Part shown: one piece after another, positions 24,343-33,554 of the stretch
How positions within the stretch are numbered: the first letter of the stretch is position 1
Layout of the letters: the number at the start of each line of letters is the position of its first letter
From: Fidelibacterota bacterium
GTDB taxonomy: Bacteria; Fidelibacterota; Marinisomatia; Marinisomatales; UBA1611
DNA: 49,738 nucleotides
Assembly: GCA_018692355.1 (NCBI GenBank)
Contig: JABHKE010000136.1
Coordinates: 1 to 49,738 of the forward strand
Direction: 5' to 3'
The notes under the pieces: generated by a model
Database searches by the model: none
Seen by the model: only the letters and a program-made list of their open reading frames with translations
Told to the model about the DNA's origin: nothing
Made by a program: the position numbers and the translations under genes

Positions 24343-27300
24343 ATGATACTAGCAAAATTTTTTGGTACAAAATCTGATCGGGAGATGAAAAAACTCCTTC
24401 CTACCTTGGACAAGATAAACCAACTATATGAGACATTCTCTTCCAAAACAGATGAAGATCTGGTCACTCGAACACAAGAATTGAAAGAGTTTGTGATCAA
24501 TCAGCGTTTAGAGAAAGCTCAATCTCTCCATGCAGATATGGATCAACAGGAGCGAGAAGCAGAGATCTTAAAAGCGGAGCAAGGTGCCCTCGATTTTATC
24601 ATGGTAGAAGCTTTTGCCATCGTGAAAGAAACGTGCCGTAGAATTTGCGGGTCTTCTTGGCGTATCTCTGGTCAAGAAACACTCTGGGAAATGGTTCCAT
24701 ATGATGTTCAGCTATTGGGCGCTATTACGCTTCATTCCGGCAAAGTTTCTGAAATGAAAACCGGTGAAGGAAAAACACTTGTCTCCACCATGCCCATATA
24801 TTTGAATGCACTTTCCGGTAGAGGTGTTCACGTGATAACTGTGAATGATTATCTCGCTCAACGTGATGCAGAATGGATGGGAGAAGTGTATAAACGATTG
24901 GGACTTACTGTCGGATTTATTTTGAATTCAATGGACAATGTTCAACGTAGGGAAATGTATGATCGGGATATTACTTATGGTACAAATAACGAATTTGGTT
25001 TCGATTATCTTCGTGACAACATGGCACTTCAGAAAGAAGATAAGGTTCAGCGTGGTCATGCTTTTGCAGTTGTTGATGAGGTAGATAGTGTTCTTATTGA
25101 TGAAGCCCGAACACCTTTGATCATTTCCGGTGCTGTGGATGCCCCTGTAGATGAAACGTTTTCCACTCTAAAACCTGGTGTTCAACAATTGGTGAAAAAA
25201 CAAACTGCTCTTGTCTCCGAGCTTGTCCAGGAAGCCAAAAAATTATTGAAAGATGAGGATGAGGATGCTGCCGGATTAAAACTGCTCCAAGCCCAACGAG
25301 GCATGCCAAAACATCGGCAGGTCATGAAGATATTCCAGGAAACAGGCATGTTAAAGTTGGCTCAGGATATAGAATCCATTTATATCCGTGATAAGAAAAT
25401 GGATGAGGTAGATGAAGACCTTTATTTTGCTATTGAAGAAAAAAGTCATGTCATGGATTTGACTGATAAGGGCCGAAATTTACTGGCGCCAGATAATCCT
25501 GAAACATTTATAATTCCGGACTTGGGTGAAATGCTTTTAGAGATTGATGAGATGGGTGACCTTTCTTCAATTGAAAAGGAACAGGAAAAAGAGAAAGCCC
25601 ACCAACTCCACGCGCAACGAAGCGGGACTATCCATAATTTTAATCAATTGCTCCGTGCTTTCACTATGTATGAAAAAGATGTGGAATATGTTCTACAGGA
25701 TGGGAAGGTAATGATTGTGGATGAATTCACGGGCCGGGTTCTTTCAGGTCGTCGTTATTCCGATGGGCTTCACCAGGCTTTGGAAGCAAAAGAAAATGTC
25801 CGAATTGAAAGAGAAACCCAAACATTGGCCACCATTACCATCCAAAATTATTTCAGGCTTTATGATAAATTGGCAGGGATGACAGGAACTGCAGAAACTG
25901 AAGCAGAAGAATTGGGGTCCATCTATGGATTGGATGTGACAGTGGTACCAACTCATCGGGATATTATCCGGGATGATCGGGAAGACCTGGTTTATAAAAC
26001 AAAACGGGAAAAATATAATGCGGCTATTGACGAGATCTCTGAATGTCATCATCGCGGTCAACCTGTTTTAGTTGGAACAATTTCTGTAGAAATTTCTGAA
26101 TTATTGGCACGTATGCTAAAACGGAATAATATACCCCATAATGTTTTGAACGCAAAACAGCACCAAAATGAGGCCGAAATTGTGGCTCGTGCCGGTCAAC
26201 GAGGCGCTGTTACGATTGCAACCAATATGGCTGGCCGGGGAACCGATATTAAACTGGGTGAAGGGATTAAGGAATTAGGTGGGCTCCATATTATTGGAAC
26301 AGAACGCCATGAATCGCGTCGAATTGATTTGCAGTTACGAGGACGAAGTGGTCGACAAGGTGACCCGGGCTCATCCCGTTTTTATTTATCACTTGAAGAT
26401 GATTTGATGCGTCTATTCAGTTCAGATCGTGTGGCTACCATTATGGATAAAATGGGAATAGAAGAAGGTGAGGTCATTTCTGCGAAAATGGTCACACGAG
26501 CCATTTCTAATGCGCAAAAAAAAGTGGAGGTTCGAAATTTTGGTATTCGGAAACATCTTCTTGAATATGATGATGTGATGAATCAACAACGGCAGGTAGT
26601 TTATGATATTCGTAACCAGGCTTTATCTGGAGAAGATATGTACGAGACAACCGAGCAGATCTTGGATGATTTTATCATGGATGAAATCGAAGCCCAATCT
26701 TTTATGGGAACACCGGACATGTGGGATTGGGATCATTTGAAACAATCTTTTGCTTCTCATATCTTAGTAGATGCATCTTTAGAGCAGATCCAGACGTCAA
26801 CTGGGAATATAGATCTAACTGCAAATGATATTGCAGATTGGATCGGAGAAGATGCAAGATCCATTTATAAAGCAAGGGAATCCTTGCTACCGGAAGATGC
26901 GTTACGTGGGTTCGAACGATTTGTCATTCTGCGAACTATCGATGATAAATGGAAAGATCACCTTTATGCCATGGATCAGTTGAGAGAAGGGATCAATCTT
27001 CGCGCTTATGGACAGAAGAATCCACTTTTAGAATACAAATCAGAAGGATTCAAAATGTTTCAGGAAATGATGACAGACATGAATTCTGTTACGGTTCAAC
27101 GATTATTCAGGACACAACTTCAAGGGATGGATCAAACACAGGGTGTTCAGGAACGATCTGTCAGAAATGTCCAAACATCTCATCAAGATACAACTGGCAT
27201 GGGATTTCAAGGGCAGCCAGATGGGCAAAAAGGAAACCAGCCCCAACAGGTTCGAACACCAGTCCAAGTTGGAGAAAAACATGGTCGGAATGAAAAGATA

Positions 27301-27390
27301 ACGGTTCGAGGTCCCGATGGAAAACAAATTGAGATTAAATATAAAAAACTCCAGAATTATTTAAATAGAGGATATACTCAGGTGTCATAA
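24343..27390 (+). CDS. secA: Preprotein translocase subunit SecA
   Basis: MKTGEGKT, VNDYLAQRD, VDEVDSVLIDEARTPLIISG, ATNMAGRGTDI, QLRGRSGRQGDPG. Confidence 0.98.
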   Translation: MILAKFFGTKSDREMKKLLPTLDKINQLYETFSSKTDEDLVTRTQELKEFVINQRLEKAQSLHADMDQQEREAEILKAEQGALDFIMVEAFAIVKETCRRICGSSWRISGQETLWEMVPYDVQLLGAITLHSGKVSEMKTGEGKTLVSTMPIYLNALSGRGVHVITVNDYLAQRDAEWMGEVYKRLGLTVGFILNSMDNVQRREMYDRDITYGTNNEFGFDYLRDNMALQKEDKVQRGHAFAVVDEVDSVLIDEARTPLIISGAVDAPVDETFSTLKPGVQQLVKKQTALVSELVQEAKKLLKDEDEDAAGLKLLQAQRGMPKHRQVMKIFQETGMLKLAQDIESIYIRDKKMDEVDEDLYFAIEEKSHVMDLTDKGRNLLAPDNPETFIIPDLGEMLLEIDEMGDLSSIEKEQEKEKAHQLHAQRSGTIHNFNQLLRAFTMYEKDVEYVLQDGKVMIVDEFTGRVLSGRRYSDGLHQALEAKENVRIERETQTLATITIQNYFRLYDKLAGMTGTAETEAEELGSIYGLDVTVVPTHRDIIRDDREDLVYKTKREKYNAAIDEISECHHRGQPVLVGTISVEISELLARMLKRNNIPHNVLNAKQHQNEAEIVARAGQRGAVTIATNMAGRGTDIKLGEGIKELGGLHIIGTERHESRRIDLQLRGRSGRQGDPGSSRFYLSLEDDLMRLFSSDRVATIMDKMGIEEGEVISAKMVTRAISNAQKKVEVRNFGIRKHLLEYDDVMNQQRQVVYDIRNQALSGEDMYETTEQILDDFIMDEIEAQSFMGTPDMWDWDHLKQSFASHILVDASLEQIQTSTGNIDLTANDIADWIGEDARSIYKARESLLPEDALRGFERFVILRTIDDKWKDHLYAMDQLREGINLRAYGQKNPLLEYKSEGFKMFQEMMTDMNSVTVQRLFRTQLQGMDQTQGVQERSVRNVQTSHQDTTGMGFQGQPDGQKGNQPQQVRTPVQVGEKHGRNEKITVRGPDGKQIEIKYKKLQNYLNRGYTQVS

Positions 27391-28556
27391 TGTCGGAAAA
27401 ATTACGGTTCGAAACTAAAGCGATTCATGTTGGAAATATACCGGATGAAGAAACTGGAGCTGTGTCGCCTCCGATTCACTTTACATCAACATATCAGCAA
27501 AGTGGTGTGGGCAAAAACCGTGGTTTTGATTATTCACGTGCAGCCAATCCAACTCGACAGCGATATGAAGAAAATATTGCATCGTTGGAAAGTGGGAATT
27601 ATGGAATTGCATTTGCCAGTGGGATGGCCGCCACAACAGCTCTATTCCAAACCTTGACCCATGGAGATCATGTTATTATTGGTAGGAATACTTATGGTGG
27701 TACCTACCGAATGGCGGTTGAAGTTTTATCCAAACATGGTTTTTATTTTGAGTTTGTAGATACGAAGTTTTTGGATCAAGTTGAAAATGTAATCAAGCCA
27801 AATACAAAATGGATCTTTCTTGAAACACCAACTAATCCGTTATTGGAATTATGTGATATAAAAGCAATTGCACAGTTATGCAAATCGCATAATGTTAAGT
27901 TGGCTGTTGATAACACTTTTATGAGTCCTTATGGACAAAACCCTTTAGCGTTTGGTGCAGATTTGGTCATGCACAGTGCCACAAAATCTATTGGTGGGCA
28001 TAGTGATTTGCTAGGTGGGGTATTAATAACAAATGAAAAAGAATTGGCAGACCAACTTTATTTTATCCAAAAATCTGGTGGAGCTGTGCCGAGTCCATTT
28101 GATTGTTGGATGTTGCTTCGTAGCACAAAAACCATGGGGCTTCGTGTTCAGAAACAATCGGATAATGCCATGACATTAGCACATCGGTTAGAATCTCATC
28201 CATCCATTGAATCAATCATGTATCCCGGTCTTGAATCTCACCCTCAGTTTGAATTGGCAAAGTGTCAGCAACTTAATTCAGACGGAGTACCCATCTTTGG
28301 TAGCATCATTTCTATGGAGTTGGGATCGGTGGAAGCACGTGATTATTTTTTATCAAAAATTCAATTATTTACTTTAGCAGAAAGTCTTGGTGGCGTAGAA
28401 AGTTTGGTATGTGTTCCATTTGGCATGACTCATGGATCCGTGCCAGTGGAAATCAAAAATGAAATAGGGCTCACGGAGTGCCTAATTCGTTTATCGGTTG
28501 GTATTGAACATGTTGAAGATTTATATGTCGATATTACCCAAGCATTGAAAAAATAA
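27390..28556 (+). CDS. Cystathionine gamma-synthase/gamma-lyase family PLP enzyme
   Basis: YSRAANPTR, FASGMAA, ETPTNP, DNTF, HSATKSIGGHSD, AESLGGVESL. Confidence 0.92.
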   Translation: MSEKLRFETKAIHVGNIPDEETGAVSPPIHFTSTYQQSGVGKNRGFDYSRAANPTRQRYEENIASLESGNYGIAFASGMAATTALFQTLTHGDHVIIGRNTYGGTYRMAVEVLSKHGFYFEFVDTKFLDQVENVIKPNTKWIFLETPTNPLLELCDIKAIAQLCKSHNVKLAVDNTFMSPYGQNPLAFGADLVMHSATKSIGGHSDLLGGVLITNEKELADQLYFIQKSGGAVPSPFDCWMLLRSTKTMGLRVQKQSDNAMTLAHRLESHPSIESIMYPGLESHPQFELAKCQQLNSDGVPIFGSIISMELGSVEARDYFLSKIQLFTLAESLGGVESLVCVPFGMTHGSVPVEIKNEIGLTECLIRLSVGIEHVEDLYVDITQALKK

Positions 28557-28690
28557 ATTATGAGTGAATTATCGGTAGAAAATCGTTATTTTAATGAAAG
28601 ACATTTGGCTCTATCTTCGAGAATATTAAAGGAGATTTGTCTAATTATTATTTTTCACCTTTTAAATTTTCAAAATTGTCGGAGGACAAT

Positions 28691-31600
28691 ATGATCTTAT
28701 TGCGAAGAACTTTTAATCCATTAGTCCTTTTAATGGTACTGGTTGGATTTGCATTTCCAAATGTTACGGTATCACTGAGTGACGTAGAGGTAGATGGATA
28801 TACTGCGGACATTATCGTCCCAGTGAACCTGAGCAATCCCAACGATGGCGTCGGAGGGTTCCAATTCGACGTAATTGCTGTGCCTGCATTAGTTCAACTT
28901 TCAGATGTAACGCTATCTGATGAAGAAAATTTCAGTGCAGATTATACTGTTTTTGGAGATGGCTCCGGTCGCGTTGTTTTTTATTCAAATAATGCCACGG
29001 GTATTGCTGCAGGTGGTAACGGTGTCGTTTTAAATCTTCATTTTGATGGATCAGCTATTTTATCTGCATCTTTGGATTTGGAGATGTTTTCATTGACTGT
29101 AAGTGATGAGGATGGAAACGTATTAGAAAGCAGTACAGAGGGCGGATCAATTACAATTGGAAATGTTGTTACAATAAGTGCAACATCTGACACGGGTGAT
29201 GTGGATGAAGAAGTTTTTCTCGATATTAATTTAGATAATCCTGGGATTGTCGGAGGTCTCCAGTTTGATCTTTATGATACACCCGACTATCTTGATGTAT
29301 CTGGTTTTACTACCACAGAACGTTCAAGCGGATTTTCTGTGGATTATACCCAATTAGACAATGGGATTACTCGTGTTATTATGTATGACGGCAACAATGG
29401 TAATATTGCTCCAGGTGAAGGTGCAATATTGAATATGACTATGACTGTTCATACGAACGCCTACAATTCAAATGTTGGCGTGAATTTTGAGAATACGATT
29501 GTCACAGATGAAATTGGCGGAACATATTGGGTTGCTGGTGCAGATTCTGGAACAGTTACAGTTACTCCAGGCTATATTGAAGAGCCACATAATTTAGAAG
29601 CACAAGATGGAATGGATGCACAGGTTCTTTTATCATGGGATGCTCCCTATGGGCCAATCCCTGAAGATTTTGAAGAAGATTTTGAAGAAGGTGAAATTCC
29701 AGAAAGTTGGACGATGACCACCAACTCTGCCCAGGGCTGGTTCATTACGCAGGATGGTTCAAGTGCATTCTGGACCGTCCCCTCCCACACCTGGTATATG
29801 TGCTCCAATGATGATATGGCTGATGATGATGGTTCCGTGGATTATTTGATTACACCGCCCATCAATGTTAGCGGGGCAGAAAGTATCATTTTGAATTTTG
29901 CATCTTATTATGATGGTGCATTCAGTCAAACAGCTCATATCGAAGTGAGTACTGATGGGTCAAATTTCACGGAAGTTACTTCATTGAATCCCACATCAGA
30001 ATGGGTTATGGAATCTATAGATTTATCTGAATACGGTGGTGCACCAAATCTTTACATTGCATTTCATTCCAATGATAACGGGGCTTGGGCATCTGGTTGG
30101 GCTGTGGACGATATCATGATTAATTTTAGTGCAAGGTCAGTTGAACAAACCGTTCATTTTAATTTGACTGAAACAGGTGCCTGGGTTGTTACTGCTGATA
30201 AGGAAGATGTGATTCAACGTTTTGGCGGTGGAATTCCTTATGAAGTAAGGGTGGATATTGATAATCCTATCACACATGAGACTCGTCCCGTAGAAATTGA
30301 TGCCTACAAAGTGTACCGATCTTATAATGAAGATAGCGATTTTGAAGAAATTGCGGAAGTAGATGGCAATACAACAATCTATCTAGATGAAGGTGTAGTT
30401 AACAGTACTACTTATTATTATCATGTTACAGCTATTTACCCGGATGGTACTGAATCCCAGCCTACCAACACAGTCTCTGCAACGCCGGTCGAATGGGTTG
30501 AATTGTGGATGGATGATGGTGCTTCACTCACAGGGCAAATGGATACATTGGATTTTTACATCAATAATGAAACAGATCTTGGACTGTTTTACTTTGAAAT
30601 TGTGGATTATCCAGATGTAATTAGCAGTATGAATGTTATTCCCACGGAAAGAACTTCGAATTGGTCCATTGAGATTTCAAATCAGGGGAATGGTACTATT
30701 GCTATTACTGGTATAAGTCTTGGAGATCCCCTAACAGCTGGGGATGGAGCTGTGTGCCGCGCTATTCTTTACCCTGATGCAGATGAGGCAATGACCGTTT
30801 CACTTTCCTATTCTAACGGCACTGCTATTCAGGACGTAAACTTTGTTGGTTTGAATTGGACCAGCGAAAGTGCAACCTATGAGGTAGGGATTGAAACACA
30901 ATATATCACTTTAACCGGTGGTTATGGGGATGATGGTGGTAACTTTACATCTTCATTAATTTTAGAGAATACACAATCGGTTTATGGACTTCAATTGGAT
31001 ATAGCATCTGATCCGCCATTTATGATGGGGACCGAAGTGAACGTAAGTGACGCCCATAATTTTTCTGACTGGGAAGTATCAGGAATGGTGATTGGGAATT
31101 ATTATCGAGTAACCTTGGTGAACAATGCTCATAATTCACCAATCAATCCAGGAATCTCTCATATAGCTGATATTACATTTGAAATTCCTGCCGGCACACC
31201 AGATGCATCCATAGTTATTTTGGATTTACAGGATGCTGAGATTACAGATCTTAATGATTTGCCCATGCATGCCGAATCAATCCCGGGTGAGGTCTATATC
31301 GGAATTCCACCTGCAGCTTACACAATCCAAAACACGTCTGGTGTACTTATTCCAGGTGGGACTGGAACATTCGATGTTCACTTAGATAATACTGAATTAG
31401 TGGGGACATTGCAATTTACATTAGTTGATATTCCTGAAAGTATGACAGTAACAAACGTAACTCCTGTGGGTCGATTCGATGATGGAATAGTAGATGGTAG
31501 TTCGGAAGAACAAGAAGATGGTTCTTATTATTTCCTTGGGTATGATTTTTCTTCAGGGATTGAAGCAGGGTCTGGGCCCATTCTTGAATTTGAGGTTCAA

Positions 31601-32032
31601 TTTGATGACAACTTGGATAATTCATCCATTATTATGTCAATGGCCAGTTATGCTACTGGAGATGCGGGTGCAAACCCACTGACAACCGTTTTCCATGGTT
31701 TTGGCCAGTTTGCAGGATATTTTGTTGCCTTGGATGAAGAAGTAAGCATTCCTGGTGAATTTGCCCTACATCCAAACTTTCCGAATCCATTCAATCCAAC
31801 AACAATGATCGCTTATGATTTGCCTGATGCATCAGATGTACAGTTGGATATTTATGATCTCATGGGAAGGAATATCAATAGGGTTGTTAATCAATACCAA
31901 TCTGCCGGTCGTCATTTTGTAACTTGGAATGCAAATGATTTTCTTGGTAATCAAGTTAGTGCTGGTGTTTATCTCTATAGGCTGCAAGCAGGGAATATTA
32001 TATTCACCCGCAAAATGGTTTTGATGAAATAA
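28691..32032 (+). CDS. Large secreted acidic protein: 5 cohesin-like modules, FN3 with inserted cleaved-adhesin-like domain, FlgD/T9SS-type C-terminal domain
   Basis: GGAGG RBS before ATG 28691; signal peptide; repeated 'L.N...V.G.QF.' modules; C-terminal FPNPFNPTT.I.Y...YDLMGR...GVYLYRL...KMVLMK. Confidence 0.8.
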   Translation: MILLRRTFNPLVLLMVLVGFAFPNVTVSLSDVEVDGYTADIIVPVNLSNPNDGVGGFQFDVIAVPALVQLSDVTLSDEENFSADYTVFGDGSGRVVFYSNNATGIAAGGNGVVLNLHFDGSAILSASLDLEMFSLTVSDEDGNVLESSTEGGSITIGNVVTISATSDTGDVDEEVFLDINLDNPGIVGGLQFDLYDTPDYLDVSGFTTTERSSGFSVDYTQLDNGITRVIMYDGNNGNIAPGEGAILNMTMTVHTNAYNSNVGVNFENTIVTDEIGGTYWVAGADSGTVTVTPGYIEEPHNLEAQDGMDAQVLLSWDAPYGPIPEDFEEDFEEGEIPESWTMTTNSAQGWFITQDGSSAFWTVPSHTWYMCSNDDMADDDGSVDYLITPPINVSGAESIILNFASYYDGAFSQTAHIEVSTDGSNFTEVTSLNPTSEWVMESIDLSEYGGAPNLYIAFHSNDNGAWASGWAVDDIMINFSARSVEQTVHFNLTETGAWVVTADKEDVIQRFGGGIPYEVRVDIDNPITHETRPVEIDAYKVYRSYNEDSDFEEIAEVDGNTTIYLDEGVVNSTTYYYHVTAIYPDGTESQPTNTVSATPVEWVELWMDDGASLTGQMDTLDFYINNETDLGLFYFEIVDYPDVISSMNVIPTERTSNWSIEISNQGNGTIAITGISLGDPLTAGDGAVCRAILYPDADEAMTVSLSYSNGTAIQDVNFVGLNWTSESATYEVGIETQYITLTGGYGDDGGNFTSSLILENTQSVYGLQLDIASDPPFMMGTEVNVSDAHNFSDWEVSGMVIGNYYRVTLVNNAHNSPINPGISHIADITFEIPAGTPDASIVILDLQDAEITDLNDLPMHAESIPGEVYIGIPPAAYTIQNTSGVLIPGGTGTFDVHLDNTELVGTLQFTLVDIPESMTVTNVTPVGRFDDGIVDGSSEEQEDGSYYFLGYDFSSGIEAGSGPILEFEVQFDDNLDNSSIIMSMASYATGDAGANPLTTVFHGFGQFAGYFVALDEEVSIPGEFALHPNFPNPFNPTTMIAYDLPDASDVQLDIYDLMGRNINRVVNQYQSAGRHFVTWNANDFLGNQVSAGVYLYRLQAGNIIFTRKMVLMK

Positions 32033-32054
32033 TCTGACTCAGACAGAGCAATTT

Positions 32055-32089
32055 AAAAAGCCCTTTTCCTGTAGGTGAAGGGCTTTTTT
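32055..32089. terminator. Intrinsic terminator after the large secreted protein gene
   Basis: AAAAAGCCCTT-ttcctgtaggtg-AAGGGCTTTTTT. Confidence 0.85.
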
Positions 32090-32126
32090 ATTGATAAAAA
32101 TTTGTAATTTATCACCCCAATTATTT

Positions 32127-32209
32127 GCCGCGGTGGTGGAATTGGTAGACACGCCAGATTTAGGATCTGGTGCCCTTTGGGTGTGAAGGTTCGAGCCCTT
32201 TCCGCGGTA
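32127..32209 (+). tRNA. tRNA-Leu (anticodon TAG)
   Basis: GCCGCGG/CCGCGGT acceptor stem, TGGTGGAATTGGTAGACAC D arm, CCAGA-TTTAGGA-TCTGG anticodon arm, long variable arm, GGTTCGAGCCC T arm; CCA is not encoded. Confidence 0.96.
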
Positions 32210-32210
32210 C

Positions 32211-32249
32211 AAAAAAAGCCATCCGTCAATAGGCGGAAGGCTTTTTTTT
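32211..32249. terminator. Bidirectional terminator between the tRNA and the cox operon
   Basis: A7-GCCATCCGTC-aata-GGCGGAAGGC-T8 between convergent transcripts. Confidence 0.85.
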
Positions 32250-32269
32250 AAATCTATTAGTTCTGATTT

Positions 32270-33109
32270 TTACCAGTCTTCGTCATCACCCCAATCATCT
32301 TCACCAGATTCTTCTTCAAGGTATTCTGCTTGTTCATCGAGCCAGGACTGGTATCCTCCATCATCATGAACGGTAAAGAAACCACGCATTCGGTAGTGGC
32401 CTAATCCACAAAGTTGGGCGCAGGCGATTTCCAAAGATTTTCCTTCTCGTTTGGACCCAATAGTTGTTTTTAGAAATTCGTCCGATGTCATGGTAGCTGT
32501 GAAATGAACCGGAATAACCATTCCCGGGATTGCGTCTTGTTTTACTCGAAGTTCTGTCAATGTAAAACTGTGAATCACATCTAAGGATGTAAGGTCAATT
32601 CGTATCTTTTTATCAACAGGTACATGCAATTGGTTCACCGTATAAAAATCATCTGATGCGTTATCGCTTGAACGATCTAAACCAACTGGGTTTTCCTGCT
32701 CATCCACAAGATCAGCTCGTGTATCACCAAATTTACCATCAGGTCCAGGGTAATGTACATTCCAGGCAAATTGTTGTGCTACAACACGAAGATGAATGGA
32801 TTCATCCGGTGTAGGAACATCAGTGACTCGTGCTGCCCAAATTGGAAATCCAAATCCAAAAAGGATCACAATTTCAATCACAGCCACAACTGCTTCAAGT
32901 AAAGATGACAAATGAGACTTGACACCTGTATAATCTGCTTTTGCATTTTTGGATGCACGGAATTTGACGAGACTGACTATAAAAAATAAACCCCAGCCTA
33001 CAAATAAAACGAGCATTAACCAGTGGACAATTGCATTAATTTCATCAATAGCAGCGCCCTGTACTGACATATTGATGGGTAAACCTAGTTTATGGAGAAT
33101 ATCAATCAA
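32270..33109 (-). CDS. ctaC: Cytochrome c oxidase subunit II (CuA)
   Basis: Two TMs, AQQFAWNVHYPG, DVIHSF, KQDAIPG, CAQLCGLGHYRM CuA motif; acidic tail EDDWGDDEDW. Confidence 0.95.
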   Translation of the reverse strand: MIDILHKLGLPINMSVQGAAIDEINAIVHWLMLVLFVGWGLFFIVSLVKFRASKNAKADYTGVKSHLSSLLEAVVAVIEIVILFGFGFPIWAARVTDVPTPDESIHLRVVAQQFAWNVHYPGPDGKFGDTRADLVDEQENPVGLDRSSDNASDDFYTVNQLHVPVDKKIRIDLTSLDVIHSFTLTELRVKQDAIPGMVIPVHFTATMTSDEFLKTTIGSKREGKSLEIACAQLCGLGHYRMRGFFTVHDDGGYQSWLDEQAEYLEEESGEDDWGDDEDW

Positions 33110-33353
33110 AAGAAGATCCTCTACTTTTATTCAATTGTTGAAAATTTTTGTTTTTTTTCCCGATCGAAATGATCGTGCTGATTACGCCACCCAACACTCC
33201 ACCTGTAACACCTAGCAATGTAATAATCGCCCAGTTCAATCCTTGAGATGCCGGTGCACTTGGGTCGCCAAAACAAGTCGCGCATGCTTGCGCTGTTTCC
33301 GGGATAAAGAACACCGTGAATGAAAGGAGAATAATGTGAAGAGTTCTTTTCAT
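33102..33353 (-). CDS. Small membrane protein with CxxC directly after a signal-peptide-like segment
   Basis: ...TAQA-CATCFGDP...TM; lies inside the cox operon and overlaps ctaC. Confidence 0.7.
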   Translation of the reverse strand: MKRTLHIILLSFTVFFIPETAQACATCFGDPSAPASQGLNWAIITLLGVTGGVLGGVISTIISIGKKNKNFQQLNKSRGSSFD

Positions 33354-33356
33354 GTA

Positions 33357-33554
33357 TCAGATATGTTTGATTTTTTTAACCATTGAAAAGCCATATGCGA
33401 TGAGCCCCGTAGCTACCAAAAAAGATAGCCCTGCCAACAAATTGGAAATATATCCGGGATTGGATGGATTGGAGATTTCAAACATGCCATAGTACCCAGT
33501 GATTAGGATAGAAACGCCAATGAAAAAGAAGTGAAATTGTTTGAGTGAAATCAT
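33357..33554 (-). CDS. Small 2-TM hypothetical protein in the cox operon
   Basis: MISLKQFHFFFI... two TMs; ATGA overlap with ctaF. Confidence 0.65.
   Translation of the reverse strand: MISLKQFHFFFIGVSILITGYYGMFEISNPSNPGYISNLLAGLSFLVATGLIAYGFSMVKKIKHI

Follow-up and report, generated by a model that had tools for sequence, protein, structure and literature searches.

Cohesin modules are known from clostridial scaffoldins and from an archaeon, and a system inferred in another Gram-negative lineage is the closest published precedent for the locus considered here. In 'Ca. Stygibacter' (Cloacimonadota), Williams et al. (2021; PMC8542988) give an inferred scaffoldin-like protein with a tail of the T9SS (type IX secretion system) type, together with dockerin-bearing S8, C25, GH18 and GH57 enzymes (GH, glycoside hydrolase). 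The gene studied here, at 28691..32032 on the forward strand, lies in a 49,738-nucleotide stretch of a Fidelibacterota bacterium (assembly GCA_018692355.1, contig JABHKE010000136.1), and this whole stretch is called the window. It encodes a protein of 1113 amino acids that we consider likely to be the non-catalytic scaffoldin of a Gram-negative, non-cellulosomal cohesin–dockerin system. The bacterium probably uses it to assemble, on its outer membrane, a complex that degrades proteins and resembles a cellulosome.

The Stygibacter system (PMC8542988) and the present one both belong to the Gram-negative Fibrobacteres–Chlorobi–Bacteroidetes group, have a T9SS-tailed protein of no catalytic function that bears cohesins in tandem, and include signal-peptide enzymes that end in dockerins, S8 and C25 among them. 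Both have been deduced from genomes alone. The present system differs in belonging to another phylum and to the oxic open ocean, whereas Stygibacter is from an anoxic lake. It also differs in having 1113 amino acids with five dissimilar cohesins and a middle of choice-of-anchor J and fibronectin type III (FN3) domains, compared to 3755 amino acids with cohesins plus the carbohydrate-binding modules (CBMs) CBM2 and CBM3, and no GH was found among the dockerin cargo here, as opposed to GH18 and GH57 there.

The clostridial type I scaffoldins (CipA, OlpA and OlpC of C. thermocellum and CohA2 of C. acetobutylicum; PDB 3kcp, 3ul4, 4dh2 and 6kgc) offer a second comparison. The modeled modules share the cohesin fold with them (Z up to 16.3, template modeling score, TM, about 0.8), several sockets stand on one non-catalytic chain, and the partners carry C-terminal dockerins with two calcium-loop repeats. 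However, sequence identity is only 12–25% and CBM3 is absent here. The predicted attachment is a T9SS tail on the outer membrane rather than S-layer homology modules or a sortase on a Gram-positive wall, and the cargo is of the peptidase and deiminase type instead of cellulases. The non-cellulosomal cohesin of Archaeoglobus fulgidus (PDB 2xdh) is also close in structure, being at Foldseek rank 4 for the first module (M1) and rank 2 for the fifth (M5), with a VIA-align Z of 16.0 for M5. That organism is likewise non-cellulolytic, but it is archaeal and lacks the T9SS context and a five-socket scaffold. Finally, the T9SS-sorted C25 (gingipain-family) peptidases of Bacteroidota have counterparts here, since both C25 and the type-A tail occur in this lineage and sister families keep a tailed C25. 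In contrast to Bacteroidota, C25 and eight other proteins here carry a dockerin in place of the tail. In a literature search, no paper turned up that connects Marinimicrobia, SAR406 or Marinisomatota to a dockerin or, in a relevant way, to a cohesin, and a broader query gave papers on cellulosomes only.

Five related modules on one chain

The gene is a single open reading frame (ORF), 28637/28691..32032 on the forward strand, as are all the features given below. Of its two candidate starts, we take the ATG at 28691 and not the TTG farther upstream (28637), because the closest orthologues share that start and length; they have 1111–1113 amino acids, align from residue 1 and are 94% identical over residues 1–300. 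The N-terminus (28691..28759) looks by eye like a signal peptide, with a basic RR followed by a hydrophobic stretch. An earlier note on this DNA had described five divergent, related modules of about 135 amino acids, and all the strings that it quoted are present in the translation. These are M1 (28754..29164, residues 22–158), M2 (29162..29578, residues 158–296), M3 (30482..30895, residues 598–735), M4 (30896..31309, residues 736–873) and M5 (31310..31726, residues 874–1012).

The modules are related well beyond chance and, judged by their alignments, appear to form one family. In a self-BLASTP, whose E-values refer to a one-protein database, M1 and M2 aligned in register with 28% identity over 135 amino acids (E 1.6e-13) and M2 and M5 with 33% over 87 amino acids (E 1e-9), followed by M2–M3 (5e-8), M3–M5 (1.2e-7) and M4–M5 (7e-5). 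Profiles made from the module slices of 23 non-redundant orthologues were compared by hhalign as well, and the probabilities were 97.8% for M1–M2, 97.4% for M2–M5, 92.2% for M3–M5, 87.0% for M2–M3, 82.5% for M2–M4 and 57.0% for M1–M4; they were low (0.4–26%) for M1–M3, M1–M5, M3–M4 and M4–M5. Both methods thus relate the modules as had been proposed. The sockets are nevertheless dissimilar, with 17–28% pairwise identity to M1, compared to more than 94% identity among Coh3–8 of CipA (10.64898/2026.01.19.700288). Each module is kept at its own position across the order, with a mean column identity of 69–83% in orthologue alignments of 27 sequences.

Evidence on the cohesin identity of the modules

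Scanned alone, M1 matches the Pfam family Cohesin (PF00963) with 26.6 bits, over the cut-off of 24.1 (25.8 bits in the genome scan), and M4 matches it with 18.5 bits, under the cut-off. The window's M2, M3 and M5 gave no match to this family when scanned alone. In the orthologues, 8 of 27 copies of M2 match Cohesin at E<=0.01 (best 7.9e-7), as do 0 of 27 copies of M3 and 0 of 27 copies of M5. Against the PDB sequences, the M1 profile had three matches at E<=10, all three of them cohesins, and the profiles of M2, M3, M4 and M5 had no cohesin match.

Two modules were folded with AlphaFold2 on 27-row alignments, M1 as the best sequence match (mean predicted confidence, pLDDT, 91.4) and M5 as one without sequence signal (pLDDT 83.7), and M2–M4 were placed via profile comparison. 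When the M1 model is compared to the PDB by Foldseek, ranks 1–48 are all cohesins, the best being 6kgd_A (E 1.6e-11, TM 0.81), and for the M5 model ranks 1–39 are all cohesins. VIA-align, an aligner independent of Foldseek, was run with M5 against 48,161 representatives and placed 19 cohesin entries at Z 16.3–11.8, ahead of a CLIPPER adhesin domain (11.5), integrin, pilin and Ig domains (<=10.3) and a CBM (8.4). Type I cohesins rank above types II and III for the folded modules in Foldseek and VIA-align. Cohesins are flattened beta-sandwiches of nine strands, and the models of M1 and M5 fit known cohesin structures more closely than those of any other beta-sandwich family. The putative cohesin assignment of M2–M4 comes from hhalign links of 82–98% to other modules, M2 being tied to M1 and M5, M3 to M5 and M2, and M4 to M2 (and, with 57.0%, to M1). 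The resemblance to cohesins that the earlier note had drawn, as opposed to a generic Ig or CBM fold, has therefore held up in the Pfam and PDB profile matches of M1, the Foldseek results of M1 and M5, and the VIA-align result of M5.

The roughly 300 residues between M2 and M3 do not figure in the earlier description. A choice-of-anchor J domain (NF038128, NCBIfam; 29669..30121, residues 327–477) is found there with 51.2 bits against a cut-off of 30, and the same jelly-roll region matches MAM (26.6 bits) and Cleaved_Adhesin (19.5 bits). It is followed by a weak FN3-like domain (30290..30472, residues about 534–594) with fn3 matches of 17.6 and 16.9 bits, both under the cut-off, and a profile of the middle region matches FN3 chains at E 0.03–0.2. 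No CBM family was found in the protein with Pfam or NCBIfam, this middle standing in its stead, and no catalytic family was found with either in scans of the whole protein and of the modules, which agrees with the earlier remark that no catalytic motif could be recognized. The choice-of-anchor J/MAM-like domain is a candidate substrate- or surface-binding module, at the place that a CBM has in cellulosomal scaffoldins. It is among the better conserved parts of the protein, with a mean column identity of 74%.

That conservation also suits a different explanation, in which the protein is a T9SS-secreted adhesin or fibril-like surface protein. Its cohesin-fold modules would then be stalk or spacers and the choice-of-anchor J/MAM-like domain the working part, and the genome's dockerins would bind cohesins such as those of contigs C35 and C170 (see below) or nothing. 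M3–M5 lack a cohesin signature at the sequence level, the M5 model also resembles related beta-sandwiches found in adhesins and pilins (Z 9–11.5), and 17 of 151 genomes of the phylum have a cohesin only. Against this, cohesins stand about 5 Z units above the adhesin and pilin folds and occupy the first 39–48 Foldseek ranks, and every module is kept at its own position throughout the order. In addition, at least three dockerins occur in nine of nine orthologue-bearing genomes and none in 15 of 20 others of the order. We regard the adhesin explanation as rather unlikely.

Dockerin proteins of the same genome

A scaffoldin has several cohesins on one non-catalytic chain and dockerin-bearing partner enzymes, and the predicted domains show both in this genome. 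The assembly, estimated to be 86% complete, consists of 215 contigs with a total of 2.05 Mb. Dockerin_1 (PF00404) exceeds the cut-off in seven matches, and in an eighth once the scores of both halves are added together, and a genome-specific dockerin hidden Markov model found nine strong ORFs (the S8 protein with 40.8 bits) and one fragment. Eight proteins score 24.4–46.1 bits against the PF00404 cut-off of 22.9, and both calcium-loop repeats, a duplicated GDxNxDG...D, are visible in the alignment. The dockerin is at the extreme C-terminus in eight of the nine proteins. The dockerins thus prove numerous, as the scaffold proposed in the earlier note would need, and M14, C25 and S8 peptidases are among their carriers.

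The dockerins are joined to a variety of domains (contigs in parentheses). Three are peptidases, namely a Peptidase_M14 with a MAM-like domain (C112), a Peptidase_C25 with its propeptide (C93) and a Peptidase_S8 (C168). The others are a PAD_porph-type deiminase (C173), a 1584-residue protein with PGA_cap and PKD (C210), a choice-of-anchor B/LVIVD propeller (C105), an arylsulfotransferase-like (ASST-type) propeller (C6), a partial protein (C138) and a partial protein in which a dockerin is followed by a cohesin-like module and a T9SS tail (C35). The choice-of-anchor-B protein carries a dockerin as its "anchor." Signal peptides of these proteins were judged by eye. No T9SS tail was found on the eight enzyme-type dockerin proteins, and no GH family among the nine at the thresholds used. 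Because neither a CBM nor GH cargo was found, the system is not classed as a cellulosome, only as a cohesin–dockerin scaffold.

Apart from the scaffoldin, the genome scan gave only two cohesin-like candidates, both weak, namely the C35 module and a 187-residue ORF on C170. The C35 ORF (C35:1-1683) is followed by an HtrA-like Trypsin_2+PDZ gene. Tandems of dockerin and cohesin with adjacent coordinates recur in the phylum (G047:C37, G103:C60, G039:C13, G129:C10 and G007:C1, G numbers being genomes of our sample), and a protein of the C35 type could serve as an adaptor or, by linking to its own kind, build a network at the surface. The C170 ORF (region C170:4215-9040) has a lipoprotein-like N-terminus and a cohesin match of 19.2 bits, and it immediately precedes a Laminin_G_3 protein, longer than 1422 amino acids, that runs off the contig.

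One could also imagine that the five cohesins bind partners outside PF00404, either each other or the C35 protein only, which would make the assembly a surface lattice and not an enzyme rack. The existence of the C35 protein and the recurrence of such tandems in the phylum speak in favor of a lattice. Nevertheless, the genome's nine dockerins, mostly on enzymes, need sockets, and beyond the scaffoldin it offers just those two weak candidates. We judge a lattice very unlikely, and the scaffoldin remains the preferred reading.

Secretion and a model of the complex

The C-terminus carries a T9SS type-A sorting domain (31778..32020, residues 1030–1110), in agreement with the FlgD/T9SS-type domain of the earlier note. 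It matches TIGR04183, whose cut-off is 23 bits, with a score of 35.3 bits (41.1 bits when the genome was scanned), and the Pfam family FlgD_ig (PF13860) with 31.7 bits. Components of the T9SS machinery are predicted in the same genome, as that note had led one to expect. SprA is found with 429.6 bits, over the cut-off; PorU is split over two contigs with 415.5 and 162.5 bits, each piece being below the cut-off of 420; PorV-like paralogues reach 128.5 bits, under the cut-off; and the genome scan counted 62 type-A tails. GldM/PorM was not detected, in a search that was equally silent in control genomes. In the Bacteroidota that have been studied, PorU is the sortase that couples type-A cargo to the surface.

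Of course, a type-A tail tells of passage through the T9SS only, and the chemistry of attachment cannot be read from sequence. The tail could be cleaved and the loaded scaffold released as a free or vesicle-borne enzyme complex. We hold release to be quite improbable, as PorU is present in the genome and, by argument, a free complex in dilute seawater would lose its products by diffusion.

For the attached scaffoldin that we favor, the following sequence of events is proposed. The protein would be exported by Sec, pass through the T9SS and come to lie on the external side of the outer membrane, where its cohesins would capture, in a calcium-dependent way, the dockerin-tagged M14, C25 and S8 peptidases, the PAD-type deiminase, the PGA_cap-type protein and the propeller proteins. 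Such capture would keep a mainly proteolytic enzyme set at the cell surface beside the uptake systems, and the central jelly-roll may hold the complex on its substrate. Since the sockets are so dissimilar and yet conserved position by position, they probably differ in partner preference, giving a defined and not a random enzyme line-up. Binding between cohesin and dockerin in this system is something that we infer from the predicted domains; co-folding of M1 with the dockerin of the M14 peptidase and two calcium ions gave a median score of 0.25 against a mark of 0.32, in a run without controls that speaks neither for binding nor against it. The earlier suggestion of a non-cellulosomal scaffold for dockerin-tagged hydrolases or peptidases is thus largely supported by the architecture and the partner inventory, with the exception of the binding itself.

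Dockerins in place of T9SS tails

Besides the present genome, 12 others of its order have a C25 peptidase that terminates in a dockerin, with alignments that reach residue 1189–1193 of 1194. In all three sister-family genomes that were examined (G095, G167 and G099), the homologue has 1752–1826 amino acids and ends in a T9SS tail (PF18962, 28.1–32.7 bits). These homologues carry the extra domains NIDO, BACON and cadherin-like, and the dockerin versions of the scaffoldin-bearing families are about 1190–1210 amino acids long. A Mur-ligase-like gene is located 3' of the C25–dockerin gene in the present genome, G131 and G067, and the same gene is found beside the C25 homologue in those three sister-family genomes. 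Read from these alignments, one enzyme lineage bears as its C-terminal tag either a predicted dockerin or a T9SS tail, in other words a tag swap. Alternative tagging is what is expected if the dockerin is a surface-attachment tag, and the swap suggests an indirect, protein-mediated attachment via the tail-bearing scaffold. The M14–dockerin peptidase is full-length in its best 120 homologues, which are 58–97% identical and from the same lineages, and none of these 120 has a T9SS tail.

How the dockerin cargo leaves the cell is a separate matter. The C25–dockerin gene (C93:7241-10822) starts 11 nucleotides after a cluster of a secretin, a 985-residue Big_1 protein, a PilB-like T2SSE (MshEN), a T2SSF and a prepilin peptidase (region C93:1-10822), and this cluster stands directly before it here and in all of the 10 other genomes of the order that were inspected. 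At least three dockerins occur in 38 of 39 genomes with the orthologous cluster ATPase versus 16 of 112 without it, a count over related, non-independent genomes. The idea that a type II secretion system is devoted to dockerin cargo was considered and dropped. In G047, genes for pilins, a PilT-like ATPase and PilM/N/O extend the cluster on its upstream side, and a type IV pilus locus is therefore the simplest reading of it; moreover, nine genomes of other families keep the secretin cluster without C25–dockerin, which speaks against a dedicated exporter. The co-occurrence of the ATPase with dockerins may mark a surface-attached lifestyle only.

Another route would be for the dockerin cargo to bind, while still in the periplasm, to cohesin proteins that carry a tail, and to leave through the T9SS as a passenger (piggy-back export), ending in a fixed order on the five-socket scaffold, each socket with its own partner. 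This is a speculative and unlikely scheme. If it were true, T9SS substrates would be recruited here in a novel way, and one of the most abundant deep-ocean heterotrophs would possess an ordered "proteolysome."

Distribution in the phylum

All relatives of the scaffoldin come from metagenome-assembled and single-cell genomes of Marinimicrobia/Neomarinimicrobiota/Fidelibacterota. In a phylum sample of 151 genomes (dockerin at E<=1e-5, cohesin at E<=1e-3), dockerins were found in 83 and cohesins in 86, with 69 genomes having both, 14 dockerins only, 17 cohesins only and 51 neither. The present genome was counted as cohesin-positive from the genome scan (E 1.5e-5), though the phylum-wide family search at E<=0.001 listed none for it. 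These counts of co-occurrence come from related, non-independent genomes and represent a pattern, not a statistic.

A search with the whole protein matches 151 of 151 genomes via the T9SS tail, so a match was called an orthologue when it spanned most of the protein. By that measure, five-socket orthologues are confined to the window's order, with one full-length span in seven genomes (37–61% identity) and two spans in one frame in two. In a set of 29 genomes that share the order or family, all nine with a scaffoldin orthologue have 3–11 dockerins each. The remaining 20 comprise 15 with no dockerin, four with one and one with three.

Other arrangements occur elsewhere in the phylum. Five sister-family genomes of the same class (G006, G018, G030, G051 and G091; 1.7–2.3 Mb) have at least 37–39 dockerin matches each and only 1–7 Pfam cohesin matches, a dockerin repertoire far larger than that of the present genome. 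Conversely, six streamlined genomes of about 1 Mb in one family (f3; G024, G035, G043, G071, G079 and G087) have one cohesin ORF each, of about 342–364 amino acids (E 1e-9 to 2e-12), and no Dockerin_1 at E<=1e-5, which amounts to a socket without a recognizable plug.

Gene neighborhood and RNA libraries

Upstream of the scaffoldin gene, the order is secA, then a cystathionine-lyase-like gene (24343–28556 of the window, forward strand), then the scaffoldin gene, and among 33 orthologous loci secA is kept in 30 and the lyase-like gene in 26. Downstream are a tRNA-Leu gene (32127–32210, forward strand), which separates the scaffoldin stop codon from the divergent coxII, and then the divergent cytochrome c oxidase cluster, kept in only 5–7 of the 33 loci. 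Metatranscriptome contigs of other organisms join at the conserved tRNA arm, with loose ends at 32124–32174. The setting in a marine aerobe that the earlier note had assumed fits these oxidase genes next door, the Marinimicrobia relatives and the matches in marine metatranscriptomes. Part of the gene is present in 20 RNA-library runs of 14 studies. RNA contigs of at least 95% identity from four runs of four studies cover 20–27 of the 30 bins of window positions 27000–33500, including most of the gene. The contigs show a gap in depth upstream of the gene, to which we give no weight. Their coverage is consistent with transcription in the sea.

Points that weigh against a scaffoldin

Several observations count against the scaffoldin reading. 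With regard to the modules, the whole-protein Pfam scan gave no Cohesin at E<=1, and M1 passes only when scanned alone. M3 has no direct cohesin match and owes its assignment to homology with M2 and M5 alone, and both M3 and M4 were assigned without a structural model. With regard to the partners, no dockerin gene is adjacent to the scaffoldin gene or in an operon with it, and the cohesin-like proteins of C35 and C170 could be the true dockerin partners. The dockerin enzymes lack both a T9SS tail and an identified route across the outer membrane, and we only infer that they meet the scaffold outside the cell. In addition, cohesin and dockerin do not always occur together in the phylum, as the cohesin-only and dockerin-only genomes show, and contigs from RNA libraries are no proof of transcription.

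Significance

The interest of the finding is moderate and stems from the abundance of the organism and the proteolytic cargo, the kind of system being already known from the inferred precedent. It would extend the cohesin–dockerin principle to a proteolytic, outer-membrane, T9SS-anchored setting. Also, the five naturally orthogonal-looking socket modules are a resource for protein engineering. Few uncultured heterotrophs of the dark ocean are as abundant as SAR406/Marinimicrobia, and little is known about the way in which they attack protein, be it particulate or dissolved. If carboxypeptidase, gingipain-like and subtilisin-like peptidases stood together on a rack at the surface, this would explain how a bacterium with a small genome can digest polymers in dilute seawater without losing its enzymes or their products.

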